The notes under the pieces are model-generated. The model did not search any database. It had not been told where the DNA came from and saw nothing but the letters and a program-made list of their open reading frames with translations. From Candidatus Acidiferrum sp. (lineage in GTDB: Bacteria; Acidobacteriota; Terriglobia; Acidiferrales; UBA7541), in assembly GCA_049686315.1 (NCBI GenBank), contig JBAVHY010000158.1, positions 2,469 to 66,468 on the forward strand: a stretch of 64,000 nucleotides of DNA, written 5' to 3'. The position numbers and the translations under genes are program-made. Shown here piece by piece: positions 27,643 to 43,900 of this stretch. Numbering within the stretch: the stretch's first letter is position 1; each line of letters begins with the position of its first letter.

Positions 27643-28596
27643 ATGAACGAGCTAGAACACAGGTCAAGTTGGATTCATTTGGCGGTATCCGCGGACTGGC
27701 CGCTCATCGCCATCCCCGGAATCATCTGGGGGGCCTCCTTTCTATTCATCGCCGAGGGACTAAAGGCCATGGGGCCCAGCGGCGTAGCCTTCGTCCGGCT
27801 GTTCATCGGATCTATTACCCTGGCATGGTTTCCCGCGGCGCGCAAACCAGTCGACTGGTTGGCATGGCCGCGCATTGTCCTGGTAGGTGTTTTGTGGTTT
27901 GCCTTTCCTCTGAGCTTGTTCCCATTCGCGGAGCAGAGAGTTTCTTCGGCGCTGACCGGTATGTTGAACGCATCGGTTCCACTGTTTACCGCCATCGTTG
28001 CCACAGTGATCGCCAGTCGACTTCCCGAACGCCGAGTGATTGCGGGTTTAGCCATCGGATTGGCGGGCGCTGGGCTGATTGCCTGGCCGACGATCCATGA
28101 GGGTCGTAGCAGCGTCGTTGGCGTTTTGCTGATCCTGGCCGCTGTTATCTCCTACGGATTCGCGTTGAATATTGCTCGTCCCTTGCAGCAGCAGTACGGA
28201 GCCCTTCCCCTGATTCTCCGCGCACAAAGTGTGGCCGTGTTATTGACCGCTCCGCTCGGCGTGCCGGACGTACTGGCTGCGCGCTGGACACTGGCGCCCT
28301 TCTTTTCCCTACTGATGCTGGGAGCATTCGGGACGGGAATCGCATTCGTGTTGCTGGGGACCGCCGCTGGAAGAGTGGGAGCCACGCGCGCGTCGTCGGC
28401 GGGGTTCTTGATTCCTCCAGTCGCGCTGCTGCTGGGAGTCCTGGTGAGGGGCGAGTACGTAGCAATGCTTTCAATTGTTGGCAGCGCGGTTTGCGTGGCA
28501 GGTGCGTGGCTCATGCGCGGCGCACAGATCAGCCCTCAACGTGACGCCAAGCTCGCCCCGTCATCGACGCTCGCTGCCCCCAGGTACGAATCATGA
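27643..28596 (+). CDS. EamA/DMT-family transporter
   Basis: About 10 TM segments arranged as two EamA-like halves. The GIIWGASFLFIAEGL start is typical. Confidence 0.85.
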   Translation: MNELEHRSSWIHLAVSADWPLIAIPGIIWGASFLFIAEGLKAMGPSGVAFVRLFIGSITLAWFPAARKPVDWLAWPRIVLVGVLWFAFPLSLFPFAEQRVSSALTGMLNASVPLFTAIVATVIASRLPERRVIAGLAIGLAGAGLIAWPTIHEGRSSVVGVLLILAAVISYGFALNIARPLQQQYGALPLILRAQSVAVLLTAPLGVPDVLAARWTLAPFFSLLMLGAFGTGIAFVLLGTAAGRVGATRASSAGFLIPPVALLLGVLVRGEYVAMLSIVGSAVCVAGAWLMRGAQISPQRDAKLAPSSTLAAPRYES

Positions 28597-28720
28597 AAGC
28601 GGCCAAGCGCTGGCTCCATTTTGCTAATTCACGGCACCTGACAATTGGCCGCATCCCGATATTTGGGGCGCTCTTCACTGTAGTTAGTCAAGGTTGGTTC
28701 ATGACATTTTGGGAGGAAAC

Positions 28721-29173
28721 ATGCGCCGCGCAATCTGGATAGCTATAGCTGGCGCCCTGGCGATCCTTATCGCATCGGGTCTGGCAGCACGCCCGGACGA
28801 CCGAGACGAACTTCTCAAGGTGCGCGAAGAGGTTTGGCGCGCCTGGTTCGCCAATGATACGAAAAAACTCGAAGCGTTGGTCCCGCCGGACACCATTGTC
28901 ATCAGCGCCGGGGAAGAGAAATGGAAAAACCAGGCAGACATTCTCCAATCCGCCGCCCAGTTTCAAGCAAAAGGTGGAAAGCTCCTCCGGCTGGAATTTC
29001 CGCGCACCGAAATTCAACGTTTCGGCGATGTTGCGATTACTTACAGTCAATATCTGTATGAAACCGAAGTGGATGGCAAGCGATCGGTCACATCCGGGCG
29101 CGTTACGGAGATATTTGTTCTGCGCAAGGCAAAGTGGACAAATCCTGGCTGGCATACCGATACGGAAAAATGA
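28721..29173 (+). CDS. DUF4440 / SnoaL-like (NTF2 fold) exported protein
   Basis: GGGAGG RBS, a signal peptide and the NTF2-like pattern (VWRAWFANDTKKLEALVPPDTIVIS ... VTEIFVLRKAKWTNPGWH). Confidence 0.7.
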   Translation: MRRAIWIAIAGALAILIASGLAARPDDRDELLKVREEVWRAWFANDTKKLEALVPPDTIVISAGEEKWKNQADILQSAAQFQAKGGKLLRLEFPRTEIQRFGDVAITYSQYLYETEVDGKRSVTSGRVTEIFVLRKAKWTNPGWHTDTEK

Positions 29174-29283
29174 GAGGAACTTGCGGGGCCTTGACCAATC
29201 CCTAAGATCGCATGAAGCGAAGCTATGTCTTGCAGAGAAATCGGTGGATCTCGGAAGGAGTAACTCTTCGCGCTACCCAGCCG

Positions 29284-30618
29284 CTACTCGACCATCTGCA
29301 AATTCAGCGCGATACGCACTCCGTTCACCAGCACCTGGCCCTTATCGATGAGCTCCTGGTTTGTAATTTCGGAATTAGCGAATTTCTGCGCTAGATTTTT
29401 CGGAAGAAGGAACTCAATCGCCTCCGAACGCTCTTTGCCGCCCGAATTGGAAACCAACGCGTTGACCACCGAGAAATCGTAATAGTCCACCGGCAAGTCG
29501 CCAGGAACCAGGTCCAGCACATCTTTCATTTTTGGCGCCACGAAGAGGTCAAATGTAAGCGCCGCGCGTTTGTAGAGCGACATTTTCTCCGGATCGTATC
29601 GCGCGTTATTCTTCAACGTCATCTGCAGCACCATCTGCTTGCTGACGACCACGAAGGTTGGCGGGTCGTAGTCCACAAAACCAAACTTCGCGCGCCCCTC
29701 CTTCGAAAGCGCATCGAGTTGCGGTTGATACTGCGTCTGCAGCTTATCCGCGTCCGCCGGTATCGCTGCAGGCTTGGATTGCGACAAATCCACTTTCGGC
29801 GCGGCACGAATGCCGGATTCCGCGGCGTCTCCTGACCCTGCCGATGGCAAAAGATTCGGATTGCTTCGAATCAGCCGGCTCGCTGAAGTGGAAGCACCCG
29901 CCGTCGAACTCGCGTCAATCTTAGTGGATTTCGAGCGAGCCTGAGTATCAACGACCAGGGGATCACGATCCAGCAAGGACAATCCGTATTCCTGGCCACC
30001 CAGAAAAATCAACGAGCGATTCAGGATATCCTGTCGCGCGTTGTCATCCTTCTCCAGCACCATCTGAAACGCGTCCTTGCGGTCCAGCACCACCACAAGA
30101 AGCTCCTTCCCCTCGTAGTCATAGCTCTTCCCTGCATCGCGCACGTGAAAGGCCACCTCAAACCCGATGGCGTCGCACTCTGTGTCTGGCGGGATGTTCT
30201 GCGTGACAATTTGCAGCAGCGGAAGAATCACATCGCGAAACGTGCGCGCCGCCCGCTCGTTCCTCGTGAACTGCTTGGAGTCATACGCGGCGTTGTAATT
30301 TCCCGTAGCTTTCAGCGTCACGCGGTCTTTGAAGCGCACAAACTCCAACCCGCGCGTATCTGCCTCGATCTGCTGCGACGGATCCAGGCCCACGATCCGA
30401 CTAAGATAAAAGGGAAACGGGAAATGCGCCCTGGCGATTTCCTGGTTGATGTTCTTCAGCTGCGCAAAGTATTGCTTTTCAAGGGATTTCAGTTGCGGGT
30501 TCAGGATTTCATTGGGACTGACCTGGGCGGTGGCACTCAACGCCGAACTAAAGACCAGAACCGTCAGGCACACATATTTGAGCGCACAACTCCGCGCGAT
30601 TCGGCACATCGTTTCCAT
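29284..30618 (-). CDS. secreted two-domain protein of unknown function (last gene of the respiratory operon)
   Basis: 444 aa with a signal peptide (LTVLVFSSALSATAQ). Two similar-looking halves are separated by a Ser/Ala-rich linker. It lies 19 nt downstream of the monoheme cytochrome gene. Confidence 0.5.
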   Translation of the reverse strand: METMCRIARSCALKYVCLTVLVFSSALSATAQVSPNEILNPQLKSLEKQYFAQLKNINQEIARAHFPFPFYLSRIVGLDPSQQIEADTRGLEFVRFKDRVTLKATGNYNAAYDSKQFTRNERAARTFRDVILPLLQIVTQNIPPDTECDAIGFEVAFHVRDAGKSYDYEGKELLVVVLDRKDAFQMVLEKDDNARQDILNRSLIFLGGQEYGLSLLDRDPLVVDTQARSKSTKIDASSTAGASTSASRLIRSNPNLLPSAGSGDAAESGIRAAPKVDLSQSKPAAIPADADKLQTQYQPQLDALSKEGRAKFGFVDYDPPTFVVVSKQMVLQMTLKNNARYDPEKMSLYKRAALTFDLFVAPKMKDVLDLVPGDLPVDYYDFSVVNALVSNSGGKERSEAIEFLLPKNLAQKFANSEITNQELIDKGQVLVNGVRIALNLQMVE

Positions 30619-30637
30619 TCTCCGAGTTTAGCATTCA

Positions 30638-31138
30638 CTACTTGGTTGTGTATTGAGACCCTGGCCGCCCCGGTCTTTGGTACGCCGGCTCCGCGATGGC
30701 GCGCGCAAAAGCGATGACAGCCTTGATTTCGTCGGCACTCAACGTCCTGCCGTAAGGCGGCATCATCGCGGATTTCCCCAGGGCGCTTCCCCCAAGAGTA
30801 ATGATGTTCTGCATGTACTCGTCGCTTTCGCCGTTCAGTTTTTCTCCATCGTTCATCAGCGGCGGTACCGGAGTTACGTTGCTGCGATTTGACGGGCCGG
30901 CCGGACTGGCATCCGCGTGGCACCAGACGCAGTATTGGTAAAACACGCGCTTTCCCTGGGATTCGTGATAACCGAGCGTGATCAGCTTAACACTGTCGTT
31001 CCAATCCGGTTCTATGTCGTACGCGCCAAACGCCACATCCGGCTTCACTACCGCGGCACTCTGCTTGCATCCTGAAAGGGCCAGCACACAAAGCACGCTG
31101 CACACCAGAAGCACGGCCATCAACGTTTTGGCTTTCAT
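30638..31138 (-). CDS. monoheme c-type cytochrome, lipoprotein
   Basis: The start at 31138 gives MKAKTLMAVLLVCSVLCVLALSGC (lipobox LSGC). There is a single CWCH motif and a distal Met region (SAMMPPYG). ATGA overlap with the upstream gene. Confidence 0.8.
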   Translation of the reverse strand: MKAKTLMAVLLVCSVLCVLALSGCKQSAAVVKPDVAFGAYDIEPDWNDSVKLITLGYHESQGKRVFYQYCVWCHADASPAGPSNRSNVTPVPPLMNDGEKLNGESDEYMQNIITLGGSALGKSAMMPPYGRTLSADEIKAVIAFARAIAEPAYQRPGRPGSQYTTK

Positions 31139-33270
31139 CGGCCGGCCTCTTGCGCGACCGCGGGTACATTTCCCGCTCGCTTTTCTGACTGCGGTTTGCT
31201 CCCGGCTCGCAGTGTCATCAGATACGCCGTCAGCGCGCGTATCTCCTCCTCCGTGAAACTCCGCCGCGATTCGATCGTGTCCGGCTGTAGCGCTTGCGGA
31301 TTGCGCAACCATGCTTCGATCCACGCCGCCGTCAGCCAGTTCCCTGCGTTGTTCAAGTTCGGCCCCACGTAACCGCCGGCTCCTCCAATCGTGTGGCACG
31401 ATTGGCATTGGTATTTCACTTCATACAATTGCTTGCCCATTGACGCCATCGCGGGTGTGAATTGCCGCGCGTCGACGCTTTCGGGATCAACGTCTGGTTT
31501 CTGCACCGCCATTGCCAGGTAGTCCGCGGCAATCGCTGCCTCTTTGTCGGACATATTGAATTGCGGCATGCGCAAAATCAGCGCCGGGCGGATGGTCTGA
31601 GGATTCTTCAGAAAATCGGCGATCCATTTCTTCTGCGCCCGGCTGCCTTCATAGGAAAGGTCCGGCGCGAGGGTTCCACCATAGCCGTTGAAGCGGTGGC
31701 AGGCGTAGCATTTGTATCGTTCATAGACTTCCGCAAATGCGCCCACCGCCTGGAACGACGCGTCTTTCTTCGGTACCACCAAATGTTGCCGAGCGCTGGT
31801 CGGCGCTGGCCCAGTCTCGCTTAACAATGCTATCGTCACAGCGTCCAGGTCGGCCTGATTCCAGCTGTACTGCGGCATGCGCGCCGCCGGATTTACTGCC
31901 ATCGGGTCTTGCAACTTCGCTTGAATGTACGACACCAGGTTGCGGTCGATTTTCGCTTTGCCAAACTCCAGCTCCGATGCGTTCTTCGCTCCCAACGCCG
32001 TCAAGTCGGGCCCAAAGTCTTTCTGTATCCCAGTTCCACTCAGCGCGTGGCAGCTTGCGCAGCCTTTCTCGGCAAATAGCCGCTTCCCGGTTTTCACTTC
32101 CTCGTCCGTAACCGCGCCAAGTTGCGGCATATTTGCCAGCAAATCGGAATCCGTCAACTTGTTCATCACGTACTGTGAAACTTTGTACAGGTCTTCATCG
32201 CTCCAGCCGTACCGCGGCATATTGGCATGGACCAAATATCCTTGCGGATTGCGCAGCCACGACACCAGCCACTCTTGGTTGACCTTGCTTCCCACCTTGG
32301 TCAACTCCGGCCCGATGTTGCCGCCAATCAGTTTCGTTTCCCCTCCGCGCGTCACCGCCAAGGGATGGCAGGTGGTGCACATCATTTGCCGGAACCGCAC
32401 TTCTCCCTGCGCAATCAAATCCGGCTTTTTGCTCCAGGTCGCCACCACTGCCGAATTAATCTTGTTTGTCTCGATGGGCTTGGCTTTCTGCACGCTCAGG
32501 AACGCAGAAAGCGCCTTGATCTCCTCTTCCTTCAGCCGGAATTTCGGCATGCGCGATTCGTCGCCGCTTTCGTACCCGTTCACTATCGTGTTGCCGTCTT
32601 TATCGAGAACCGTGCGCGGCTCCTTCAGCCACTTGTAAATCCATTCGCGCGTGACTTTATAACCGACGGTCGACAGCTCCGGGCCCAGCATGGGCCGTTC
32701 CACATTGTTCAGCTTGTGGCAACCCTGGCAGTTCAAGCGCGCCAGCAGTTCCCTGCCCCGCGCAAGCTGTGGTGTCTCCTTGAGATCGACTTGGTGGCAA
32801 CTGCCGCAGGAAGCCTGCAAAAAATGTGCCGGTAAAATTGGTTGTTCCCACGCCAGTGTGGTCTCGTGCGCTTCTGCCACTTCGGTTGCGGGTCCCTGGC
32901 CGCGGTGACATATCGTGCAGCCCCAATCGCGCACATTGTGTGGAATCGGCGGATGCGCGCGAAACGGCTGCGGCACCAAGGAATCCACCAGGCTTGCCTG
33001 GGCAATGCCCTGATGACAGGTCGTGCAGCGATCGGTCACATTCATCCCCGGCAACCACACCTGATCAATGTTCGGACTGTAATCGGCCAGCAGTTTCTTC
33101 GTGTCCGGCCGGCCCTGCGCAAACTTCACAAACGAGCGTTTGTAGTGCTTCCATTCGGCACGGAAGTCTTTCACCGGTGAAATTGCCAGCACCAACACGC
33201 ATGCCACTGTGGATACCGCAAAGGTGAGCCGCAATCTCCCCGACAACTTACCCATTTCTTCAGCCGGCAT
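31135..33270 (-). CDS. membrane-anchored octaheme c-type cytochrome
   Basis: N-terminal TM helix. Eight CxxCH motifs at residues 82, 118, 155, 181, 298, 404, 521 and 622. The last five sit in class-I-like repeats with GP(E/D)L and (R)MP(x)(F/Y) signatures. Confidence 0.85.
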   Translation of the reverse strand: MPAEEMGKLSGRLRLTFAVSTVACVLVLAISPVKDFRAEWKHYKRSFVKFAQGRPDTKKLLADYSPNIDQVWLPGMNVTDRCTTCHQGIAQASLVDSLVPQPFRAHPPIPHNVRDWGCTICHRGQGPATEVAEAHETTLAWEQPILPAHFLQASCGSCHQVDLKETPQLARGRELLARLNCQGCHKLNNVERPMLGPELSTVGYKVTREWIYKWLKEPRTVLDKDGNTIVNGYESGDESRMPKFRLKEEEIKALSAFLSVQKAKPIETNKINSAVVATWSKKPDLIAQGEVRFRQMMCTTCHPLAVTRGGETKLIGGNIGPELTKVGSKVNQEWLVSWLRNPQGYLVHANMPRYGWSDEDLYKVSQYVMNKLTDSDLLANMPQLGAVTDEEVKTGKRLFAEKGCASCHALSGTGIQKDFGPDLTALGAKNASELEFGKAKIDRNLVSYIQAKLQDPMAVNPAARMPQYSWNQADLDAVTIALLSETGPAPTSARQHLVVPKKDASFQAVGAFAEVYERYKCYACHRFNGYGGTLAPDLSYEGSRAQKKWIADFLKNPQTIRPALILRMPQFNMSDKEAAIAADYLAMAVQKPDVDPESVDARQFTPAMASMGKQLYEVKYQCQSCHTIGGAGGYVGPNLNNAGNWLTAAWIEAWLRNPQALQPDTIESRRSFTEEEIRALTAYLMTLRAGSKPQSEKRAGNVPAVAQEAGR

Positions 33271-33967
33271 GGGTCCCCCAGGGCCACACCCAGGACCAGC
33301 CTGGGCCGCGGAAAAATGTTCCGACCACAGTGAGGCACACCGCCGTGGCGATGAACCACGTCATCACCCACCAGGAGAGCGGCTTCGTGCGCAGCGCTCC
33401 CATCCATCCACTCGCCGCTTTGGATTGATAAGACGCCACCAACAGCGCGGCGACCAACACTGTTGGCACAATGATCGTCCAAGCATCGAACACCACCAGG
33501 ACAATCAACAGTACAATCACCACGCCAAGCACAATTCCCAACCGCTTCGAGGCTTGCTGGCCCCACAACGGTTTCCCTTCCACGTTCACATTGAAGTAAG
33601 GAATCACGATCAGCGCCAGCAACACCAGCGTCGGAATCAGAATCCCCGCCACGAACGGTGGAAAGAAATGCAACAATTCCTGCAAGCCCAGGAAATACCA
33701 CGGTGCCTTCGCCGGATTTGGCGTCAGCAGCGGGTTGGCCAGTTGTTCCAGAGGCGCGTCCCAGAACAGCGCAATCAGCACCATCCCGATAATCAACACC
33801 TCAAGAACGATGGCCTCGCGAACCAACACGTGCGGAAAGGTCATCACTTTCGGTCCGCGCTCATCAATTACTTTTGCGGACGTATTCCGGGTGATGAAAA
33901 CGATTCGGCGCGGCTCTTTCTTCGCGTCCGAACTGAATCCCGATTCGATTTTAGTTTTTTCCGTCAT
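33260..33967 (-). CDS. cytochrome b C-terminal / subunit IV-like (PetD-like) membrane protein
   Basis: Contains [21 protein letters not shown] (PEWY-type motif) and extra C-terminal helices. It overlaps the cyt b gene end by 17 nt. Confidence 0.8.
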
Positions 33968-34703
33968 CGTCTTTTGACCGTACCGTCAGCCCGCCGTCCT
34001 TCTGCACACGCCAGAAATGCATGCCGATGAACAGGAACGCGAGTAACGGGAGAATGACCACGTGCAGCACGTAAAACCGCAGCAGCGCGTTTTCGCCAAC
34101 AATGTTTCCTCCGAGCGCCACGAAGCGAACCTTGTTCCCAATGATGGGCATCGCGGAGATGATGTTCGTTCCCACTGTCACCGCCCAAAACGCCAATTGG
34201 TCCCAAGGCAGTAGGTAACCCGTGTAACTAAGGAATAGCGTGAGCAGCAGCAGAATGACTCCAATAACCCAGTTGAATTCGTGGGGCGGCTTGTACCCGC
34301 CGCGATAGAACACATGGAACATGTGCCAGAACACAAGCAGGACCATCAGGTGCGCGCCGATGCGATGCATGTTTCGAAGAAATACTCCATTCGACACGAC
34401 GAATCGCAAGTCTTTCATGTCGTGATACGCCTTTGGCGCGGCCGGGTGGTAATAGAACATCAGCAACACGCCGGTCACCACGAGGAGCAGGAACAGCAGA
34501 AACGATAGCGAGCCAAGGTAATAAGCGGCGCGCACGCGCAGGGACTTCTCGCGTACTTTTACCGGCAGCCAGTGCAGGAACAGGTTGCCGAACACCGCCA
34601 AGCTTCGCGTGCGGTTGGTAATCGCAGGTCCGCGCCGGAAGATCGACTTCCACACGCGCGTGGCGCGTAAAGTGTCGAGGGCTGTCTGGAGAGTGGTGGC
34701 CAT
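33951..34703 (-). CDS. cytochrome b (b6-like N-terminal four-helix core)
   Basis: The four conserved heme-ligand His contexts are present: [28 protein letters not shown] and IGMHFWRV. Length is 250 aa, typical of split cyt b. Confidence 0.9.
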
Positions 34704-34711
34704 GGTTCTCC

Positions 34712-35212
34712 TCAGGCCTGCAAAACCTGATCGGGTTTTATGCTTTGCAGTTTATCCACCAGCAATTCCCCGTCAGCCGTAAGACTGATGGAATAATGCG
34801 GCAACGGACGCGGCGCCGGCCCTTCCATCTTCTTCCCATCGGGCTGGAATTTGCTCCCGTGACATGGGCAAGCGATCATGTTCGCTTCCGGCTTCCATTG
34901 CGTGACGCAGCCAAGATGCGTGCACACGGCCGATACCGCATAAAATCCCGCCGCCGTCCGCACGATGTACACCTGCTGCTCCTGAAGTATCGTGACCGAA
35001 TTCACCGGGTACAGATCCGGACTCCCCGCCCGAAATGTGGTCGAAGGCTCAAACAGCACATTGGGTGAAAAATACTGATACGTCAGCGCCGCGCCGCCCA
35101 GTCCCGCAATTCCCAGCGCTCCCATCGTGATTTCGTTCAGAAAATCTCTGCGCGACACTGCAGGTTTTTCGCTGAACTGTCCTGCCGCCGGCATCTGCGT
35201 GCTATCGCTCAT
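34712..35212 (-). CDS. Rieske [2Fe-2S] protein, Tat-targeted
   Basis: Tat motif SRRDFL plus a TM anchor. The cluster boxes are CTHLGC and CPCHGS. Confidence 0.9.
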
Positions 35213-37161
35213 GGGTTTAGAACGATCTCCTCGTGAGTTGTCATGCTTGCGTCTCCGTCAAATACTTCAAATGCTTCCATCGAAATGGTGTTCACCGGGC
35301 AGCGCTCCGCGCACAACCCGCAGCGGATGCACACGGTTTCGTCCTTAACCATCACCGAGCCTTCCGCCCGGTTCAGTTCCTCCGGTGAAACATGCTGCAA
35401 GTCCATGGTGCGAAGTTCCCGTTCCCTGCTGAGCCGCTCCTTCTCTTCCTCGGTAAACGCAAAATCCTTCAACGGCACGAGGGCCAAGCAATTCTCTGGA
35501 CACACATCCACGCAACCTCCGCAGAGGATGCACTCCGTCCCATTCGCTTCGTTGCCTTCGAATATCGTATTGATCCAGCACTGTAGGCAGCGGCTGGCTT
35601 CCCTTCGTGCTTGCTCTTCGGTGTAGCCGGTTTCCACTTCCGCCACGCCGGTGCGCCGCTCGATCGGTAGCGCCGGCACGGTCAGGCGCGAATATTCGTC
35701 GTAATGCTCTGCCATCTCATGATGGTCGAGCACGGTGATCTGCACGTACCTTTCTTTCGGCTTCCAGTCCGGCCCGCGAAGGTACTTGTCGATCTCTGAC
35801 GCCGCCTTCTTACCGTCGGCAACCGCGTTGATGATGAGGCGTGGTCCGAAAGCAATGTCCCCCGCCGCGAAAATTCCGGGCGCCGTGGTCATCAACGTAT
35901 CCGGATTGATTTTCAGTGTCCCTTGGCGCGTGGTTTCCACACCGTCCGCGGGTTTCAGGAAGGACAGATCGGAAGCCTGGCCAATCGCCAGAATCACCGT
36001 TTCGCACGGAATCACAAACTCCGTGCCGAGTTCGAATTTCGGATTGAAGCGCTTGTTCTCGTCGAACACGGAAATGCACTTTGTCACTTCCAAGCCCGTC
36101 AGCTTGTCGTTTTTCCCCACGAACTGTTTCGGCCCCAGCGAAGGACGCAGTTTGATTCCTTCCAGTACCCCTTCTTCAATCTCCTCCTCGGACGCCGGCA
36201 TTTCCACGCGCGATTCCAGGCACACGAGCTGTACTTCCCGCGCACCCATGCGCAACGCCGCCCGCGAAACGTCCATGAACTCCTTCATGGCCACGTCCAT
36301 TTCACTGGAGGTCAGCTCATTCGGAAGCACAACGCTCGCCATGTCGGTCATCAGCTTCTGCTGCTGTTCCCGCATGGCCGAGCGCGCCACGTCGATGGCT
36401 ACGTTGCCTCCGCCAATCACGACTACTCGCTTGCCAACTTCGAATCGGTAGCCCAGATTGACGTTCAGCAGAAAATCGATACCCTTCACCACTCCATCCA
36501 ATTCATGACCGGGCAAATTCAAGTCTCGACTGCGATGCAATCCGAACGCCATCAGCACCGCTTTGTATCCTTGCGCCCGCAAGTCCTCGAGCGTGAAATC
36601 CTGTCCCAGCCGCATGTTCAATTTCAACTGGGGTCCCAGGTCGAGAATTTCCCGAATCTGCGCCTGCAAGACGTCGCGCGGCAATCGGTACTCGGGGATT
36701 CCCAAGTGCATCATCCCGCCCGGTACCGCCGCCGCTTCAAAGATGGTCACGGAGTAACCCAACAGCGCGAGATCGTGTGCCGCGGACATGCCTGCGGGAC
36801 CTGAGCCGATGACCGCCACCTTCTCGGAATACTTCACTTCGGGCTTTCCACCGAACACGTCGATCGGGTTTTTTGACTCCGGCCCGTGCCGCTCGGTAAC
36901 AAACCGTTTCAGCGCGCGGATCGAGATGGGCGTGTCGAATTGACCCCGACGGCATGCAGGCTCACAGGGATGCCCGCACACCCGGCCGCAAATCGACGCA
37001 AACGGGTTGGGGGTCCGGGCATAGCGGTAGGCTTCTTCGTACCTTCCTTCGGCAATCAGCGAGACGTACCGCCCGGCCTGGGTGTGCACCGGGCACGCCT
37101 GCATGCAAGGAAAGTTCGACTCCAGCCATTCCAAATCGACGAGCTTGGTTCTAGTCGTCAC
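35209..37161 (-). CDS. NfnB/GltD-like FAD/NAD(P)-binding iron-sulfur oxidoreductase with a C-terminal 2x[4Fe-4S] ferredoxin domain
   Basis: GTG start and no signal peptide. The N-terminal Cys clusters (CMQACPV ... CGRVCGHPCEPACRR) are followed by a Rossmann motif (KVAVIGSGPAGMSAAHDLALLGYSVTIFE) and a second dinucleotide fold (VVVIGGGNVAIDVA). The C-terminus has CILCGGCVDVCP and CIRCGLCAERCP. The stop overlaps the Rieske start (ATGA). Confidence 0.85.
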   Translation of the reverse strand: MTTRTKLVDLEWLESNFPCMQACPVHTQAGRYVSLIAEGRYEEAYRYARTPNPFASICGRVCGHPCEPACRRGQFDTPISIRALKRFVTERHGPESKNPIDVFGGKPEVKYSEKVAVIGSGPAGMSAAHDLALLGYSVTIFEAAAVPGGMMHLGIPEYRLPRDVLQAQIREILDLGPQLKLNMRLGQDFTLEDLRAQGYKAVLMAFGLHRSRDLNLPGHELDGVVKGIDFLLNVNLGYRFEVGKRVVVIGGGNVAIDVARSAMREQQQKLMTDMASVVLPNELTSSEMDVAMKEFMDVSRAALRMGAREVQLVCLESRVEMPASEEEIEEGVLEGIKLRPSLGPKQFVGKNDKLTGLEVTKCISVFDENKRFNPKFELGTEFVIPCETVILAIGQASDLSFLKPADGVETTRQGTLKINPDTLMTTAPGIFAAGDIAFGPRLIINAVADGKKAASEIDKYLRGPDWKPKERYVQITVLDHHEMAEHYDEYSRLTVPALPIERRTGVAEVETGYTEEQARREASRCLQCWINTIFEGNEANGTECILCGGCVDVCPENCLALVPLKDFAFTEEEKERLSRERELRTMDLQHVSPEELNRAEGSVMVKDETVCIRCGLCAERCPVNTISMEAFEVFDGDASMTTHEEIVLNP

Positions 37162-37194
37162 CTGGTTCGCTCCGGACCCCCGTTCGCGTTCTGA

Positions 37195-37806
37195 TTACTT
37201 CTTAACTGTCAGGTCGGCGGTCACCGTTCCCGCAGCGACTTCTACCGCTTGCGTGGTGACTTTTCCGTCTTCGCTCCAGGTCTTCAACGTGTACTTGCCC
37301 GGAGGAACGTTCTTGATTTCATAGTTTCCGTTCTTGTCCGTCAACGCGAAGTACGGTGTCGGCGAGACAAAGACGTACCCATTCATTTCTGGGTGCACGT
37401 TGCAGAGCAATCCCGCCACTCCAACATCAGTAAATTGGAAGCTCTTCTTTTCACCCTTCGGCCAGGTGCCCATGTTGTGCGATAGCTTCTTGTTGCCGCT
37501 GATGCTGGGCCAATACACGTTGTGCCCCACCGGATCGCTGTTCAGGAATTCCACTATCGTTCCCACTTGCACGACGATCACGTGTGGCACAAACGTCATT
37601 TTCACCTGATCCACCACCGGCTTAGCTGTAGGCGCGTCGAACTTCTTGTCCGGAATCGCGTCGATATACACAGCGATGTTTTCAGCCGACTTGATCCCCT
37701 GCACGCTGACCTTCCCCTTGATGTCCCCCGCCAGGCTCGCGCCCGCAAGGAGTAGCACTGCAACGCATACCGCGACTGCTTTAACCGCAACTAGACGTAG
37801 CTTCAT
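37195..37806 (-). CDS. exported cupredoxin (type-1 copper ligand set) fused to a CarboxypepD_reg-like beta-sandwich
   Basis: Signal peptide present. Candidate ligands are H95 (PVGHNV), C135, H138 and M141 (LLCNVHPEM). The C-terminal TDKNGNYEIKNVPPGKYTLKTW is typical of the regulatory-like domain. Confidence 0.7.
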   Translation of the reverse strand: MKLRLVAVKAVAVCVAVLLLAGASLAGDIKGKVSVQGIKSAENIAVYIDAIPDKKFDAPTAKPVVDQVKMTFVPHVIVVQVGTIVEFLNSDPVGHNVYWPSISGNKKLSHNMGTWPKGEKKSFQFTDVGVAGLLCNVHPEMNGYVFVSPTPYFALTDKNGNYEIKNVPPGKYTLKTWSEDGKVTTQAVEVAAGTVTADLTVKK

Positions 37807-37866
37807 TGTTCTCCTCTCGTTTCCCTGGATTGATGCCTAAGAAGTTTCTTGGCCCGTGCCCAATGG

Positions 37867-39336
37867 TCAGAACACGTAGTCTATACCCGTCATGAACGTG
37901 TTTGGGCGGTAGAAAACCGTGTTGCCGTTGACGTCGGTAATGGGCAGTTCCCATTGGCGTGAATATTCGCCAACTATCTTGATGTTGGCGCGCACAAGTA
38001 TCTGGAAACCCGGGCTAAAACGGTTCCGCGTTCTGTCTTTGGAAACCCCGTTGAAGAAATCAGTGGGCGAATTCACAAAGTCATAGCGCATGGTTCCGAT
38101 CAACCAGGGATACAACCAGTAATTTCCACCCACAAACCCGCCGGTGTAAGTGATGGCCGGCGCCTTCAGCAGTGTCTGCACCCCACTCTCTGAGTCGGTC
38201 AACACCGTATGATTATCATCGTGGCCCACCATTCCCAGCCCGAACAGTTCCAGGTGCCGGTACTTGAAACGCAGGTCCGCCCCGGCACGGTAAAACGACT
38301 CGTTGAAGCTACCCAATCCTGGATAGGTGGGGGGCGTGCTCCCGATATTCTGGACGTTGTCGCCGTGATAGAAGAACCCGCCAACCCGGATTGAGGTGTG
38401 GTCGCGGGGGCCGGTTGGCCCTGCCGCTTGTATAGCGTGGCGACTTTCCAAGTCGCGCTCCAGGTTGAGCTTATAGGAAGCCCGGAGATACACATCCTTT
38501 GTGTTCCGGATCGCGGGCCCATCGTTATTGCCGTTGGCGATCGCCAATGACCATGTGAAATTCCCGTTGTCCGGATAGCCCCCAAATTCAATTGCTCGCT
38601 GCGGCGCACCCAGCGTGAACGGATTGTTCGTGGTACCCGCCCCGCCGGCCATGTTCACCTGGTCATACACATCATAGTCGGAGAGGTAGATGGTCCGGGC
38701 TTGAGAGAAGGGCAGGTCCAGTTCGAATTGCCCGAACCTCACATTCAGCGAATTCTTCGGCAGGTGGAAGATGCGGCCCAAATCGTTGTACTTCAGATAG
38801 CCGTCACCCAATCCTCCATTGGCACCCGATCCTCCCGTGGAAATGTCATCGTCGATCCAGAATGAGAGATTGGGCCCAAAGCTCCCCGCGCTGATAATCG
38901 TGAAGGTGTTGGGTTGAAATAGATCGACGCGTGGCAAGTAGGAAGAAGTCTGATTGACGCCACTGGGCTGACCGGCGTTCCACGCCAGTGCACCCGAATA
39001 GCGGAAGGAAATCGGCACGGTCCCGGGGATTTCTCCTGGGTACACCGCTTCCGGAAATGCTTCCTTCTGGGCCTTCGATCCCAGCATCACAGGGTCTTGC
39101 TTCACAAACGTATCGTCATCCTTCGGGAACTTGAAGCCATTTTTCTTGAAGGCTTCGCCGAAGTCGTTCAATTCGGGGTAATTGTTGTGACAGGTGGTGC
39201 AGGAGGTTCCGTACTTCCGAGAAAACGCAGGTATGGCTTTGCCCGATGGCACCACAACGAGAAGCATCAGCCCCACCAGCGATCCAAACAACACAACAGC
39301 GACAATCTTAACGAGAAGTTCTTTGTTAATATTCAC
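37867..39336 (-). CDS. fused monoheme cytochrome c / outer-membrane beta-barrel protein (Cyc2-like architecture)
   Basis: 489 aa with an N-terminal signal or anchor and a single CTTCH at residues 46-50 (SRKYGTSCTTCHNNYPELNDFGEAFKKNGF). The rest is Gly/aromatic-rich with an alternating beta-strand pattern. It ends ...GIDYVF, a terminal aromatic typical of OMPs. Confidence 0.6.
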   Translation of the reverse strand: MNINKELLVKIVAVVLFGSLVGLMLLVVVPSGKAIPAFSRKYGTSCTTCHNNYPELNDFGEAFKKNGFKFPKDDDTFVKQDPVMLGSKAQKEAFPEAVYPGEIPGTVPISFRYSGALAWNAGQPSGVNQTSSYLPRVDLFQPNTFTIISAGSFGPNLSFWIDDDISTGGSGANGGLGDGYLKYNDLGRIFHLPKNSLNVRFGQFELDLPFSQARTIYLSDYDVYDQVNMAGGAGTTNNPFTLGAPQRAIEFGGYPDNGNFTWSLAIANGNNDGPAIRNTKDVYLRASYKLNLERDLESRHAIQAAGPTGPRDHTSIRVGGFFYHGDNVQNIGSTPPTYPGLGSFNESFYRAGADLRFKYRHLELFGLGMVGHDDNHTVLTDSESGVQTLLKAPAITYTGGFVGGNYWLYPWLIGTMRYDFVNSPTDFFNGVSKDRTRNRFSPGFQILVRANIKIVGEYSRQWELPITDVNGNTVFYRPNTFMTGIDYVF

Positions 39337-39439
39337 TTATCCCCCAGCTTTGGCCCATGAACGGGCACACATTGGTGACGGGTGATGCGCGAACCGGTTC
39401 AAAAACGGAGCCATTCTCGGCTGTACGTTACTTTGCTGC

Positions 39440-39477
39440 GGTGACCAGAGTCACTGCCTGATGTGACCTGCGTCACA
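39440..39477. promoter_or_regulatory. two CRP/FNR-type inverted repeats (TGTGA-N6-TCACA class), centres 22 bp apart
   Basis: The sites are ggtgaCCAGAGtcact (39440-39455) and tgtgaCCTGCGtcaca (39462-39477). The second has perfect half-sites. Both lie in the 274-bp divergent region between the porin-cytochrome gene and the iclR-like ORF. Confidence 0.4.
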
Positions 39478-39661
39478 CTCGCGCCAGGATTGGCCTCTAT
39501 GATCCGGCACAATCGTGGCCACTCTCTCTACTGCATCTCGATGCGCATCACAGTAGAAGTCGCTTGAACTTGGTTCGAGGTAGGCTTACAGTGCCGAACG
39601 CGAGTGTCCGTTGAAAAAACGTTTGCAAAGAAGAACAGATGCCCAAGATCGGCGCGATTCA

Positions 39662-40483
39662 ATGAAGCGGCAAGCCAAGCTTCAGTTAGCCAAGAAGAAC
39701 AAGCGGCCCGTAAAATCACTACTCAAGGCTCTTCGGATCCTCGATAAGCTTGGTGATTGTCCTTGCGGATCGGGAATTACAGAGATGAGCGATGCGCTCA
39801 AATCGCCCAAGAGCACGGTCCACCGGCTTATCGTAACGCTGGAGGAAGCGGGGTACGTTATTTTTGACCCGCTGACGTCGAAATACAGCCTGGGGAATCG
39901 GGTTGCCAGACTAGGCGAACAGCTAAACCAACAATCGCCCCTACTAACGTTTGGGGTGCCGTTGTTAGAACAACTTACAAAAGAGTGCCATGAGGCTAGC
40001 CACCTGGCTATCATGCAGGGAACCGAAGTTGTTTATGTCTCTCACGAAGAAAGCAAGGAACCCGTTCGAATCAGCTTCGGGAGAGGGCACCGAGCCCCGG
40101 TGCATTGCACGGCGCTCGGCAAAGCGCTTTTGGCCGGCCTCTCTGAGAGCGAAATCTTTATACTTTACAAGAACAGCAGGAAACTTGAGCGGCTCACTCC
40201 GAACACCGTGACATCCATGCGAACTCTAATGGCAGAGATTGCGATTGTGCGCAAAGAAGGCATCGCCTACGACAGTGAAGAATATATGACGGGATTGCGC
40301 TGCATGGCCGCGCCGATTCGGGACTTCACATCCAGAATTGTCGCCGCGATGAGTCTCTCGATGTTCAAGCACAAAATGACCGAAGAGAAGAAAGCCTTTT
40401 TCAGGGACGCTCTGAGAAGAGTCAGCATGGAGTTTTCGGAGAAGTTGGGGTTTCTGCCTGCCGCGAGGAAACCTGGTTTCTGA
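39662..40483 (+). CDS. IclR family transcriptional regulator
   Basis: N-terminal wHTH (VKSLLKALRILDKL...ITEMSDALKSPKSTVHRLIVTLEEAGYV) and an IclR effector domain (...GLRCMAAPIRD). I prefer the ATG at 39662 over the TTG at 39611. Confidence 0.85.
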   Translation: MKRQAKLQLAKKNKRPVKSLLKALRILDKLGDCPCGSGITEMSDALKSPKSTVHRLIVTLEEAGYVIFDPLTSKYSLGNRVARLGEQLNQQSPLLTFGVPLLEQLTKECHEASHLAIMQGTEVVYVSHEESKEPVRISFGRGHRAPVHCTALGKALLAGLSESEIFILYKNSRKLERLTPNTVTSMRTLMAEIAIVRKEGIAYDSEEYMTGLRCMAAPIRDFTSRIVAAMSLSMFKHKMTEEKKAFFRDALRRVSMEFSEKLGFLPAARKPGF

Positions 40484-40957
40484 AGCTCTCCTTCAGTTGC
40501 TGCCGCCAAAGCCTCCTAGTTCCCTCGTGCCAACTCCCTTACGATCCGCAACTCCGCCGTCGAATCTTCCAGGGCGGTGAAGCGCTTTTCGCCGGGCGTG
40601 TCAGGCGTGCTGGCGTGTGTTCCACAATGCGGAACAGCGTTCCAAAAATACTCCTTGACACCCTTTATTCCAAGGTGTTACCAAGTTTCGCCAAGCAACG
40701 AGCAAAGATGCTTGCTTGCGTTGCAGTCGTGCTGGGGTCCGGGGTTATCGAAATTCTGAATCGATTATCGCTGCTATTTGGCGCCACCAGTGTCTCGAAA
40801 TGGTGGTATTGATGCAGCCAGCGAGACACGGAATTGCGCTTGGGCACAGCGAATGGGCCCTACAGTGTTGCGAAGGGGACTTTTGAAAAACGCATTCTTC
40901 AATGAGCGTGAATTTGAACTGGGCGGACATTTTTATTTCAGACAGGAGGAAGTATTC

Positions 40958-43900
40958 ATGAGGCGAAATTGTCGATTCCTATGTATGCCGAGCTTGCTCC
41001 TTGCGTTCGCTCTTTGGGCCTTCGGTCCTTCGCACGTTCATGCACAGACAGTCAGCACGGGCGCGATTGCCGGCGCAGTAACTGATCCGTCGGCTGCGGC
41101 AATTCCGTCCGTAAGCATTACGGCTACAGAGAAGGCTACGGCGTCCAAGCGAGTGGTTCAGACGGATTCGAGCGGTGTTTACCGTTTCAACCTGCTTCCT
41201 CCTGGGGAGTACGAACTGCGATTCGAGGCCGCGGGGTTCAAAACTGTGGTGCCGCCAACGCTTAGCGTAACTGTGACGGAAACCCGCACGCTCAACGTGC
41301 AGATGATTCTGGGTGAGGCGAAGGAGACCGTGGAGGTTTCGGCAACGGCCCAGGTCGTGCAATCGGAAAACGCCACATTGGGTACCGTAGCTGATAGCCG
41401 CACCATAACGGAGATTCCTCTTTCGACGCGCAACTATACGCAAATTCTTACGATGTCCACGGGCGTCGTCGCGGACGTAAGTAACGCGGCGAATCTAGGG
41501 AATGGAACGCAGGATTTTTACGTCAACGGAGCCAGCAATACCAGCAACAACTTCCAGATGGACGGCTCCGATGTGAACAATTTCGGCAGCGGCCGCGCCG
41601 GGAGCTTCCTGCAACAGGGCGGCATCCCCATTCCCAATCCAGACGCAATTCAAGAGTTTAAGATTCAAACCAGCCTGTACGATGCGGGGTACGGCCGCGG
41701 GGCCGGCGCGAATGTCGAGGTGGTGACAAAAACGGGCACCAATCAACTTCACGGCGCGGTGTTCGAATTCCTGCGCAACGACAAGCTCGACGCCAATGAT
41801 TTCTTCTTGAATCAACAACACCAGCCGCGCGCTGTGATGAAGCAGAATCAGTTTGGCGGAAGCCTGGGCGGCCCGGTAATCAAGGACAAATTCTTCTTGT
41901 TTGGCTCCTATCAGGGCACTCGCCAGGTCAATGGCCTGAGCGCGGGTTCCCTTTCACAGAATTCCCTTCCTCCGCTGACGAATGATCGTTCGGCGGCAAC
42001 GTTGGGAGCGGAGTTCTGCGGGCAGAAAGGGGCGGAGGGCGGAGTCGCGGTGGCCTGCGACGGTTCGAACATCAATCCCGTGGCGTCAAAGCTGCTAAAC
42101 ATGAAGATTCCCAACGGCACCTATCTCATCCCTACTCCGCAAACGATCACCAATGGCCAGGGATTTTCGGCGTATAGCATTCCAGGTCATTTCACCGAAG
42201 ACCAATTCCTGATTAATGCCGACTACGTGATCTCGCCGAAAAACCGCCTCACCGAGCGCTACTTCTTTGCCAAGGCGCCGCAGAGCATCCCGTTCAGCCA
42301 GTGTTTTTTCAACACTCCGTGCACGCCGGGGTCGGGCCAGGACGCGCAATTCCAGAACCACGTGGCTTCCCTCAAGCTGGCATCGCTGCTGTCGAACAGC
42401 CTGGTCAACGAGGTCCAGGTGAGCTACTCCAGGAACCGCGGGCTTCTCAACAGCGAGAGCAAAATCACGGATCAAAGTCTCGGCATAACGCCGGGCGACC
42501 CGACCTTCCCAAAGATGCCGACGATAGCCGTCAACGGGCTCTTCAGCATCGGAGGAAATTTTAACGACGATTCCGATTCCACCGTAAACCAGTATCAATA
42601 CTCGGACCAACTCGCTTGGACTCGCGGCCGCCATACGGTTCGGGGAGGGTTCGAGTTCGAGCGCGCGCAGTTCGACTTTAACGATCCTGGTCCGCGCCGT
42701 GGAATCCTCGACATCCTGAGCTTTCCCGATTTTCTGCTAGGGTTGAGCGCGGCGCAGAATGGAACGCAATTCAGCAACATTTTTCTGAGCGAGGGCATTG
42801 CCGGCTCGCTGTCCAAAGCGTATCGCGCCAACAACTACGCGAGTTTCGTGCAGGACGATTTCAAGGTGAACTCGCGTCTGACCATCAACCTCGGCCTTCG
42901 GTGGGAGATCAACGGTGGCGTCAGCGAAGATCAAGGGCGTTTTAGTAGCGTGTTTCCGAGCCTGGCCAAGGCGAGCAACCCCCAGGTTTCCGCTGGCGGC
43001 ACGCTCGAGGGATGGGTAGTGCCTTCAAATTTCCCGTTGCCCATTCCGACTGGCGTAACCAAACTCTCCGGGAAGACACTGGCTCGCAATGGCGCGCCTT
43101 TGCATAACTTGGGGCCCCGCCTGGGTTTTGCTTGGCGCCCGCTGCCAAGTTCGAGTCGCCTGGTGCTGCGCGGCGGATATGGCGTGTTCTACACCCGCAC
43201 GAACGGCAACTCCGTTCTGCAAACGGTGACGTCTCCGCCCTTCGTGAGCTTCGGCGTGGGAGCCGGCGGCGGCAATTCTCTGGCGACGTTTGAGGCGCCG
43301 TTCAATCCCCCGCCGGCGCCCGCAATTTTCCCGACCCGAACGCTTACTTCGGGACTCTCGGCCGACTACGTAGCCGAAAATTACGATTCGCCGATGGTGC
43401 AGCAGTACAATCTTGAGACGCAATACGAATTCCTGCCCAGAACTGTGTTGGAAGTGGGATACGTGGGCTCGCGTGGCACACGCCTGGCCTCCTCGCGCTT
43501 AACTAACACCGCGCTCTTGGCCAGCCCAACAGATCCTGTCAACGGAATCACCACCAACACCGTGGCCAACGCGGGGCTTCGCGTGCCGATCCTGGGATTC
43601 GCCCCCAACGGGCTCACCAGCATCGAAAGCTACGGGTTCTCCATGTACAACGGCTTGCAGGTGACGGTGCGAAGGCAATTGAGCCACGGCATCCAGTTCC
43701 AAGGCGCCTACACGTGGGGTAAGAATCTGACCGACGTCGAAGGCGTCGGGTTTCAGTCCGTCTTTCTCGGCGGCGATGGCAATAGCAACGATCCCAGCGA
43801 CCGCCATCAGCGCTGGGGTCCCGCGGATTTCGATCGCCAGCAGCGATTCGTCTTGACGTATCTGTGGGAAATTCCGCGTCCCCGCGGCGAGAATCTCGTC

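Follow-up and report, generated by a model that had tools for sequence, protein, structure and literature searches.

A conserved nine-gene operon of Acidobacteriota joining an anammox-type, NAD(P)-oxidoreductase-linked Rieske/cytochrome b complex to a putative Cyc2-family porin and a copper protein

A 64,000-nucleotide stretch of contig JBAVHY010000158.1 of Candidatus Acidiferrum sp. (assembly GCA_049686315.1, positions 2,469 to 66,468 of the forward strand), referred to below as the window, carries between positions 29284 and 39336 nine co-directional genes on the minus strand. It can be stated with high confidence that these genes constitute a self-contained operon of the Acidobacteriota, which encodes a b6f-type Rieske/cytochrome b complex of the family that in anaerobic ammonium-oxidizing (anammox) bacteria is linked to an oxidoreductase of nicotinamide adenine dinucleotide or its phosphate (NAD(P)). 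Taken together, the nine genes have the appearance of an entire and so far undescribed route by which electrons could pass between iron outside the cell, the quinone pool and NAD(P). The reading that we favour, and to which we would give about an even chance, is a menaquinol-driven bifurcation in which one electron is sent outward via Cyc2 and the other to NAD(P)+. The predicted products, named P1 to P9 in operon order and with their lengths in amino acids (aa), are the following:

P1: 37867-39336, minus strand, 489 aa, Cyc2-family outer-membrane fused cytochrome-porin
P2: 37195-37806, minus strand, 203 aa, secreted type-1 copper protein, amicyanin-like
P3: 35209-37161, minus strand, 650 aa, cytoplasmic flavoprotein of the NfnB/GltD type, for flavin adenine dinucleotide (FAD) and NAD(P)
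P4: 34712-35212, minus strand, 166 aa, membrane-anchored Rieske [2Fe-2S] protein of the 'SF' type
P5: 33951-34703, minus strand, 250 aa, four-helix cytochrome b of the b6 type
P6: 33260-33967, minus strand, 235 aa, subunit-IV-like membrane protein with an APWY motif
P7: 31135-33270, minus strand, 711 aa, membrane-anchored octaheme cytochrome c
P8: 30638-31138, minus strand, 166 aa, monoheme class-I cytochrome c lipoprotein
P9: 29284-30618, minus strand, 444 aa, secreted two-domain protein of no known family or fold

The original prediction for this stretch, made from the sequence alone, had described nine co-directional genes joined by overlaps or by gaps of 60 nt or less, and every junction that it gave matches the list of open reading frames (ORFs). 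Neighbouring genes overlap by 4 nt (ATGA) at 35209-35212 and at 31135-31138, by 17 nt at 33951-33967 and by 11 nt at 33260-33270, the remaining intergenic gaps being of 60, 33, 8 and 19 nt. The start of P8 was set at 31138, although the mechanical ORF reaches an upstream in-frame ATG at 31408, because independent gene calls in three related loci (L001, L091 and L092) give proteins of 163-166 aa; P9 is 100% identical to a protein of an NCBI metagenome-assembled genome, in whose annotation the gene starts three codons later (P0121). Scans of positions 28500-40800 for consensus promoters and terminators rendered no convincing internal terminator on the minus strand, with counts not above the shuffle expectation, a result that is uninformative on operon structure. 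The signals carried by the proteins would place P1 in the outer membrane, P2, P8 and P9 in the periplasm, P4 to P7 in the inner membrane and P3 in the cytoplasm.

Four of the products, P3 to P6, tie the operon to the anammox complexes. Rieske/cytochrome b complexes with an NAD(P) oxidoreductase are encoded by Kuste4569-4574 and Kustd1480-1485 of Kuenenia, and an ortholog cluster of Scalindua rubra (our locus L083) comprises a Rieske protein, an NAD(P) oxidoreductase of 607 aa, cytochrome b, subunit IV, a multiheme cytochrome and an HAO-like octaheme protein. By BLASTP against the Scalindua proteins, P3 is 42.6% identical over 632 aa (E 6e-157), P4 42.6%, P5 46% and P6 37.5%, while for P7 and the multiheme subunit the similarity is marginal (30% over 82 aa). 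The parallel with Kuenenia drawn in the original prediction is therefore one of real homology, extending over the full length of P3 to P6 at 37-46% identity, and it is also seen in the best solved relatives of P4, which are Kuste4569 (9rk4, 7.6e-28) and Kustd1480 (9rk3, 8.7e-22).

P3, which shows no signal peptide, is made up of an N-terminal two-cluster domain (Pfam Fer4_20, 9.5e-21), a two-Rossmann Pyr_redox_2 region (2e-31) and a C-terminal 2x[4Fe-4S] ferredoxin (Fer4_7). NCBIfam PRK12771 matches it with 462 bits, and its relatives in the PDB are the large subunit of NfnI (5jca_L, 7e-71) and GltD (6s6s_G, 1e-55). All 17 cluster cysteines (6 N-terminal and 11 C-terminal) are kept in the orthologues, a set sufficient for about four iron-sulphur (FeS) clusters, as in the anammox model. 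P4 carries a twin-arginine translocation (Tat) signal, SRRDFL, and a Pfam Rieske domain (2.3e-11) whose two boxes, CTHLGC at residues 97-102 and CPCHGS at 115-120, are invariant in 74/74 orthologues; the pair formed by Ser120 and Phe122 is invariant too. This 'SF' pair, in which a phenylalanine stands in place of the tyrosine, belongs to the class of Rieske proteins with potentials of 200-230 mV (PMC3509893), and for the two Kuenenia proteins Kuste4569 and Kustd1480 potentials of +303 and +335 mV, respectively, have been measured, the latter protein having the serine and lacking the tyrosine (PMC12954380). For P4 a potential of about +200 mV or higher can be predicted.

P5 (Pfam Cytochrome_B, 8.8e-45; best PDB match cytochrome b6, 6rqf_I, 3.8e-42) has its heme-ligand histidines at H113 and H127 of helix B, with 13 residues between, and at H214 and H229 of helix D, with 14 between, which is the spacing of b6; they are kept in 81/81 and 80/81 orthologues. 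The protein of the window has no cysteine at all, and the position of the CxGG motif reads [YW]YLG[STA] in all 81 sequences, so that no covalent heme cn is to be expected; split cytochromes b without the heme-cn cysteine have been listed as rare (PMC3509893). An additional histidine on the N side, His44, is kept in 78/81 orthologues and aligns with His43 of the Scalindua orthologue. In Kuste4571, His43 is the modelled ligand (AlphaFold 3, AF3) of an extra inter-monomer heme b that leads to the FeS chain of the flavoprotein (PMC12954380). P6 matches Pfam Cytochrom_B_C weakly (19 bits) and NCBIfam ExtQ at 2.5e-12; it has extra C-terminal helices and an APWY motif at 88-91, equivalent to the PEWY motif of the Qo site, which is invariant in 81/81 orthologues.

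No homologue of cytochrome c1 or cytochrome f was found by Pfam or NCBIfam among the products of the cluster, and it is P7 that, judging from its sequence and position, takes the place of these cytochromes. In P7 a transmembrane anchor at the N-terminus precedes a c7-like triheme part, after which come five class-I domains, including a FixO-like one (Pfam Cytochrome_C7, Cytochrom_C five times, and FixO), and its eight CxxCH motifs are kept in 70/74 orthologues. P8 has a lipobox, LSGC, and a Cytochrome_CBB3 domain (Pfam, 1.2e-8), with a single CxxCH in 66/66 orthologues. With eight motifs in P7, one in P8 and one in P1 the cluster holds ten CxxCH in all; the nine c-type hemes announced beforehand are those of P7 and P8, to which the heme of the porin is to be added. 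The earlier description of the complex as neither a standard bc1 nor a standard b6f likewise holds, given the split b6-type cytochrome b with its subunit IV and the octaheme cytochrome standing where c1 or f would be, and the Pfam and NCBIfam calls for the other products agree with the list first proposed.

At the other end of the proposed route, P1 is, by its sequence, a member of the Cyc2 family of fused cytochrome-porins. A hydrophobic N-terminus, taken as a signal peptide, is followed by AIPAFSRKY-GTS-CTTCH-NNY-PEL and by a beta-rich body that would form a barrel of about 16 strands. The motif unique to Cyc2 has been described as AxPxFAR[Q/K][T/Y] before CxxCH with PxL four residues after it, and OprO and OprP are the templates reported for Cyc2 (PMC8406198). 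P1 shows this motif with one A-to-S change, PAFARKY being read in many of its orthologues; its single CxxCH (CTTCH, residues 46-50) is kept in 54/56 orthologues, and its length of 489 aa is above the Cyc2 minimum of 365 aa. The AlphaFold2 (AF2) model of P1, built with 40 homologues, is a beta-barrel, with a predicted local distance difference test (pLDDT) score of 57 and a predicted template-modelling (pTM) score of 0.56, for which Foldseek gives OprP (2o4v, E 6e-10) as the top match, followed by other 16-strand porins including OprO (4rjw). Neither Pfam nor NCBIfam holds a match to P1, but a profile of its family finds 887 clusters at the 50% identity level with E<=1e-10, and among the best 150 matches to the profile, 78 of the 97 full-length proteins have AxPxFARKY..CxxCH...PxL together with a single heme motif. 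Thus the heme-porin claimed in the original prediction agrees with the published description of Cyc2 in its motif, in its single CxxCH and in its OprP/OprO-like barrel. In two of the related loci, L014 and L002, the gene of P1 appears split, with the heme motif on an ORF of 95-112 aa and the barrel apart, owing to a frameshift error or to a pseudogene.

The cupredoxin domain of P2 comprises residues ~53-147 (Pfam Copper-bind, 1.6e-7), and its best match in the PDB is amicyanin (2gb2, 2.4e-6). Its copper ligands, His95, Cys135, His138 and Met141 (His / Cys-x2-His-x2-Met), are kept in 69-70 of 70 orthologues. The domain sits inserted in a CarboxypepD_reg/transthyretin-like beta-sandwich: once the cupredoxin is removed, the remainder of P2 matches positions 2-80 of the 82 of CarboxypepD_reg with 37.7 bits, above the gathering score. 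Rusticyanin is absent from the PDB and family matches of P2, which are instead to amicyanin, plastocyanin and related proteins.

Conservation of the operon was assessed in a scan of one genome per GTDB species with the cytochrome b as query, which rendered at least 586 confirmed relatives; the best 80 loci were analysed, gene order was read by tblastn of the nine proteins of the window, which showed one and the same order and orientation throughout, and counts are given for the 50 loci with sufficient flanking sequence. All of the best 80 loci, at 58-93% cytochrome b identity, are from Acidobacteriota, of the lineages Acidoferrales, Terriglobales, Bryobacterales and Pyrinomonadaceae/Blastocatellia, with the exception of two contigs labelled as Eremiobacterota. 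The nine genes were found complete and in the order of the window in 34 of the 50, a Cyc2-type gene lies within the cluster in 46, and the gene of P3 is present in all 50, in two of them partially. When two homologues of P1 were taken as the starting point, the same nine genes were met again (L091 and L092), with lengths of 203, 650, 169, 250, 235, 712, 163 and 443-455 aa for P2 to P9. The genes that flank the operon in the window, encoding an IclR regulator, an EamA protein, a cupin, a molybdenum enzyme and giant outer-membrane proteins, do not adjoin the cluster in the other loci. The same order in dozens of species-level genomes with differing flanks is far beyond what could be expected by chance, and an order that is kept while the flanks change indicates a discrete cluster that is selected as a unit. 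A breakdown of synteny among relatives, which had been named beforehand as the refuting observation, was not seen in this comparison. The two Eremiobacterota-labelled contigs (L009, Candidatus Cybelea, and L011, Eremiobacteraceae) carry the complete cluster, and their cytochromes b are 84-92% identical to those of the Acidoferrales, which is most likely the outcome of mis-binning, and otherwise of a recent transfer.

A further sign comes from the porin itself. Whereas a Cyc2 of the P1 type lies upstream in 37 of the 50 loci, a second Cyc2 type, of ~452-470 aa and with the canonical motif AVPS[FY]ARQTG..CSGCH..PEL, occupies the position of P1 in 4 of them and in one locus with short flanks (L050, L053, L068, L073 and L078), lies downstream of P8 in 5 (L030, L032, L033, L036 and L044), and is present as an extra copy in L010. 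That the second type has been recruited at two different positions is an independent sign that the link between porin and cytochromes is under selection. The two types are homologous in profile comparisons over residues 23-157 of P1 (97% probability, E 8e-11), a region that covers the heme domain and the first strands only.

The distribution of P9 follows that of the porin types, since 34 of the 37 loci whose Cyc2 is of the P1 type have P9, against none of the 9 with the second type, and this co-variation suggests that P9 is a partner of P1. No Pfam or NCBIfam family and no PDB match by Foldseek at E<=0.001 was found for P9, whose 1862 homologues are all 'hypothetical' where the source gives a name. 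It is an internal duplication of one alpha/beta domain (hhalign 89%, E 2e-6), the two copies being joined by a disordered linker rich in Ser, Ala and Pro (residues 209-282); the AF2 model is of modest confidence (pLDDT 65). Most homologues are lipoproteins by a consensus lipobox, which the copy of the window does not have. These features bear on the substrate of the porin, as it could be supposed that P1 exchanges electrons with humic or quinone compounds, with Mn or with other soluble redox molecules, the rest of the system acting as in the reading that we favour. The function of divergent Cyc2 clades has been explicitly called uncertain in the work on Cyc2 (PMC8406198), the barrel of P1 is very divergent from that of the canonical-motif Cyc2, and the P1 type has, in P9, an uncharacterised companion of its own. 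The heme domain, in turn, keeps the Cyc2-specific motif almost unchanged, and no evidence points to any particular alternative substrate, so that we regard a substrate other than iron as very unlikely.

Upstream of the first gene the window shows what is likely, from its sequence, a putative operator of a regulator of the CRP/FNR family:

39440-39477, unstranded, two CRP-type palindromes, 22 bp centre to centre, ~134 and ~112 nt upstream of the P1 start

The two palindromes are TGTGACGCAGGTCACA at 39477-39462 and AGTGACTCTGGTCACC at 39455-39440. The 64-kb window has a single exact TGTGA-N6-TCACA, the first of these palindromes, which lies 134 nt before the P1 start, and an imperfect copy follows 22 bp downstream of it; the count of exact sites in the window is not significant by itself. 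A site of the TGTGA-N6-TCACA type was, however, found in 38 of 61 related loci (among L003-L076) in the region from -400 to +60 of the first gene, against an expectation of 0.046 per region. The sites lie mostly at -145 to -95, and in front of P2 where P2 is the first gene, which supports the view that one regulated promoter precedes the whole cluster. In nine loci a gene for a CRP/FNR-family regulator adjoins the cluster, and another lies upstream in L092. The seven cluster-adjacent regulators that were read have an N-terminal CxxC-x8-C and a CRP-like recognition helix, SRETVTR or SRESVSR, features that hint at redox or O2 control. It is probable therefore that a regulator of this family switches the operon on or off. 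Two candidates of the window itself were set aside: the divergent IclR gene, as dedicated regulator, because the flanking genes are not conserved by the cluster elsewhere, and the Crp-family gene at 21506-22297, as ortholog of the cluster-adjacent regulators, because it is only ~26% identical to them and has neither the cysteine motif nor the RE..R helix.

In the bifurcation that we favour, menaquinol would be oxidised at the Qo site marked by the APWY motif. One electron would pass from the Rieske protein to the octaheme P7, then to cytochrome c and the cupredoxin and, through Cyc2, to soluble or chelated Fe(III); alternatively, its destination could be a terminal oxidase whose genes lie in another part of the genome. 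The second electron would take the hemes bP and bN, the extra heme b bound by His44, the four FeS clusters of P3 and its FAD to reach NAD(P)+. The recycled electron would in this way return at the level of NAD(P)H and not at that of quinol, and more energy would be conserved per exported electron: by our own stoichiometric estimate ~6 H+ would be moved per exported electron, as against 4, provided that complex I is the point of re-entry for NAD(P)H. In principle the components could also work in the opposite direction and draw electrons from Fe(II).

Several considerations favour the outward direction. Acidobacteria use menaquinone (MK-8), and the potential of the Fe(III)/Fe(II) couples increases steeply with falling pH, Fe(III) being an acceptor of high potential where soils are acid. 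If menaquinone is taken at about -74 mV and the Rieske protein at +200 mV or higher, heme bP would have a potential near -350 mV, close to that of NAD(P), by the symmetry rule used in PMC12954380. In addition, the three variants of the core complex each carry in their operon a high-potential sink, be it the HAO-like protein of the anammox cluster, which is a proposed nitrite reductase, the cbb3 oxidase of the related cluster L085/L086 (described below) or the cupredoxin and Cyc2 of the present operon, and this fits what bifurcation needs. A direct route from NAD(P)H to cytochrome c that would bypass the quinone was considered and rejected, the Qo motifs being intact and such a route being without precedent.

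The same genes could serve as an inlet. Cyc2 would then oxidise dissolved Fe(II) and pass the electrons to the cupredoxin and the c cytochromes, mostly downhill to an oxidase encoded elsewhere, while a fraction would go 'uphill' through the Rieske/cytochrome b complex into the menaquinone pool, with the second electron of the Qo site supplied from NAD(P)H via P3 (confurcation) or the step driven by proton-motive force. This is the logic of Acidithiobacillus and Leptospirillum, and it would give soil Acidobacteria a litho-heterotrophic use of Fe(II). The characterised Cyc2 proteins, those of A. ferrooxidans, Leptospirillum (Cyt572) and Mariprofundus PV-1, all oxidise Fe(II); Cyc2 and a cupredoxin make up the front end of the rus pathway of A. 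ferrooxidans; in Leptospirillum, Cyt572, which is of the Cyc2 type, is combined with a bc complex most closely related to those of Brocadiales and Nitrospinales; and the carrier lineages have acidic, iron-rich soils and peat as their habitat (record titles; PMC7980381). Against an inlet it can be argued that the cluster has no oxidase, no c4 cytochrome and no rusticyanin, that the related clusters pair the same core with sinks (the cbb3 oxidase, the HAO-like proposed nitrite reductase), and that nothing within the 64-kb window points to CO2 fixation. Moreover, the flavoprotein branch run in reverse consumes NAD(P)H and gives no reductant for autotrophy, which is one of the reasons for favouring outward bifurcation. 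Oxidation of Fe(II) is in our opinion a possible function of the operon, although a rather unlikely one.

Some observations weigh against menaquinol-driven bifurcation to iron. Four of the 50 loci have no Cyc2-type gene within 10 kb and a variant locus with short flanks, L079, has no flavoprotein gene, from which it follows that neither component is indispensable to the core complex. The structural model of P1 is of modest confidence (pLDDT 57), and all three Cyc2 proteins that have been tested biochemically are Fe(II) oxidases, that is, inlets and not outlets (PMC8406198). P5 has no heme cn, which belongs to the electron path modelled for the anammox complex, and the extra heme b bound by His44, to which that path would lead, is itself a prediction. 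In the anammox bacteria, too, the reduction of NAD(P)+ is unproven, being deduced from Rieske potentials and AF3 models (PMC12954380). For the operon, which way the electrons flow and how this flow is coupled to NAD(P) are matters of inference, and no lack of NAD(P)H is apparent in heterotrophs.

It could also be the case that P4 to P7 are an ordinary complex III with accessories, the Rieske protein, cytochrome b, subunit IV and octaheme cytochrome working as an aerobic menaquinol:cytochrome c (cupredoxin) reductase, with P3 as an NAD(P)H-input or regulatory module of the ancestral 'membrane-anchored dehydrogenase' type and with Cyc2 and P9 co-located but acting separately. The motifs of the Qo site are canonical, the class-I domains of P7 resemble the cytochromes QcrC and CcoO/CcoP that feed oxidases, the related cluster L085/L086 lies within a cbb3 operon, and cytochrome b has been discussed as a membrane anchor for oxidoreductase subunits (PMC5600118); the absence of P3 from L079 and of Cyc2 from four loci would also be accounted for. 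On the other hand, the overlapped packing of the genes and the retention of Cyc2, the cupredoxin and P3 across orders and classes speak for one functional unit, as does the independent recruitment of the second Cyc2 type, and to carry electrons from NAD(P)H to quinone in this way would waste energy in comparison with complex I, an argument that has been made for the anammox complexes as well (PMC12954380). We consider an ordinary complex III unlikely.

The wider claim that abundant soil Acidobacteriota carry an undescribed pathway that bifurcates menaquinol electrons to an iron-facing outlet, formed by the cupredoxin and Cyc2, and to cytoplasmic NAD(P)+ is put forward only tentatively. If it were true, a 'super Q-cycle' would allow more energy to be gained in acid soils from respiration with Fe(III) or O2, and the long-debated question of the NAD(P)-reducing Rieske/cytochrome b complexes would move from the anammox bacteria, which are hard to grow, to a phylum with aerobic isolates. 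The bifurcation of quinol electrons to NAD(P)+ by bc-type complexes is an open problem of bioenergetics, and a strongly conserved core in a phylum with cultivable aerobic members would make it more tractable. Acidobacteriota are among the most abundant bacteria of soils, and the operon offers a concrete and complete candidate path from their quinone pool to the cell surface, in a phylum of which the Acidoferrales have been proposed to be major iron cyclers from counts of multiheme cytochromes alone (PMC7980381). Cyc2 is used as a metagenomic marker of Fe(II) oxidation, and if it were an outlet, or bidirectional, in these organisms, many such inferences would need to be revised. The regulatory signature and the conserved partner P9 provide handles for experiments.

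Apart from the operon, the window contains at 40778-44401 and 49928-53641 two genes for outer-membrane proteins of 1207 and 1237 aa, unrelated to it, with an N-terminal CarboxypepD_reg domain and an OMP_b-brl_4 barrel, an architecture typical of the TonB-dependent-like receptors of Acidobacteriota. A marginal partial match to a tRNA was found at 21374-21429 (Rfam, 30.8 bits, model positions 7-64 of 71), where ARAGORN calls no tRNA, and at 3299-4024 there is a truncated ORF of the phage-integrase family; the two may be remnants of an integration event.

Parts of the system had been reported previously. Cyc2 genes are known from metagenome surveys covering Acidobacteriota, genes for NAD(P)-binding FeS oxidoreductases adjoin cytochrome b genes 'in many other cases' beyond planctomycetes (PMC5600118), and the cytochromes b of Solibacter group with those of Kuenenia (PMC3509893). 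In full-text searches of the literature, with most subscription journals outside their coverage, no description was found of an operon joining Cyc2, a cupredoxin, a flavoprotein-bearing complex, an octaheme cytochrome and P9, nor of its breadth in Acidobacteriota, of the loss of heme cn with retention of the histidine for the extra heme, or of the CRP-type operator. The 'Candidatus Acidiferrum' of the Ferrovaceae paper is a betaproteobacterial homonym and irrelevant here.

The comparison with the anammox complexes shows a shared core with different surroundings. Common to both are the four full-length homologous core subunits, the split b6-type cytochrome b, a multiheme cytochrome c in place of f, the Rieske serine that raises the potential, the histidine at the site modelled for the extra heme b, and the bifurcation of quinol electrons to NAD(P)+, which is a proposal in both cases. 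However, the flavoprotein gene follows the Rieske gene in the anammox clusters and precedes it in the present operon; the anammox sequence WCLGG, with the cysteine of heme cn, reads YYLGS here; and the octaheme cytochrome of the operon, of another build (a c7-like triheme part plus five class-I domains), is only marginally similar to the anammox subunit. The HAO-like octaheme protein has no counterpart in the operon, which adds Cyc2, the cupredoxin, the lipoprotein cytochrome and P9, and the host belongs to a phylum of soil heterotrophs with an ordinary periplasm and not an anammoxosome.

The closest non-acidobacterial relative that we found is the cluster L085/L086 (GCA_964620445.1, 5812-16353), in which a flavoprotein-Rieske-cytochrome b-subunit IV-cytochrome module shares an operon with a cbb3 oxidase. 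P3 and P5 are 48.5% and 54.5% identical, respectively, to their counterparts, and the order is the same, with the flavoprotein before the Rieske protein. In contrast to the present operon, no Cyc2 and cupredoxin precede the module, which is followed by DsbD, a diheme cytochrome c, CcoN, CcoO and FixG, and its cytochrome has 380 aa instead of the 711 of P7, to which it is 31% identical over residues 34-368. The modular use of this cytochrome b family is also seen in L089/L090 (920-9719), where genes for a molybdopterin oxidoreductase, an NrfD-type membrane subunit, a four-cluster protein, a chaperone and a polyferredoxin of 474 aa immediately precede a Rieske-cytochrome b-subunit IV trio.

A precedent for an outer-membrane porin, c cytochromes and Rieske/cytochrome b/subunit IV in one conserved cluster is provided by extHIJKLMNOPQS of Geobacter, with the OprP-like porin ExtI, multiheme cytochromes, the Rieske protein ExtO, the cytochrome b ExtP, ExtQ and the lipoprotein cytochrome ExtS. 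The best NCBIfam names for P5, P6 and part of P7 are indeed ExtP (251.5 bits, cut-off 290), ExtQ (47.2, cut-off 150) and ExtS (74.2, cut-off 100), all below their cut-offs. The porin of Geobacter, however, has no fused heme, and its cluster has neither flavoprotein nor cupredoxin but includes a rhodanese and a selenocysteine cytochrome.

Finally, the Cyc2 systems of iron oxidation comprise the Cyc2-rusticyanin-Cyc1/CycA1-aa3/bc1 system of A. ferrooxidans, Cyt572-Cyt579-bc/cbb3 of Leptospirillum, and the Cyc2 of neutrophilic Zetaproteobacteria and Gallionellaceae. They share with the operon a porin fused to a monoheme cytochrome, which has the Cyc2 motif and a barrel resembling OprP/OprO, and the placement of a periplasmic cupredoxin and c cytochromes between the outer membrane and the Rieske/cytochrome b complex. 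The analogy with the route of Acidithiobacillus made in the original prediction stands in part: Cyc2 and a cupredoxin are present, but the latter is not rusticyanin, being amicyanin-like and set in a transthyretin-like domain, and the cluster holds no c4 cytochrome, no c1 or bc1 and no oxidase. It differs as well in that its Rieske/cytochrome b complex carries a flavoprotein, and while in the known Cyc2 systems the cyc2 and pet genes are found in separate operons or unclustered, here they are brought together in one operon.

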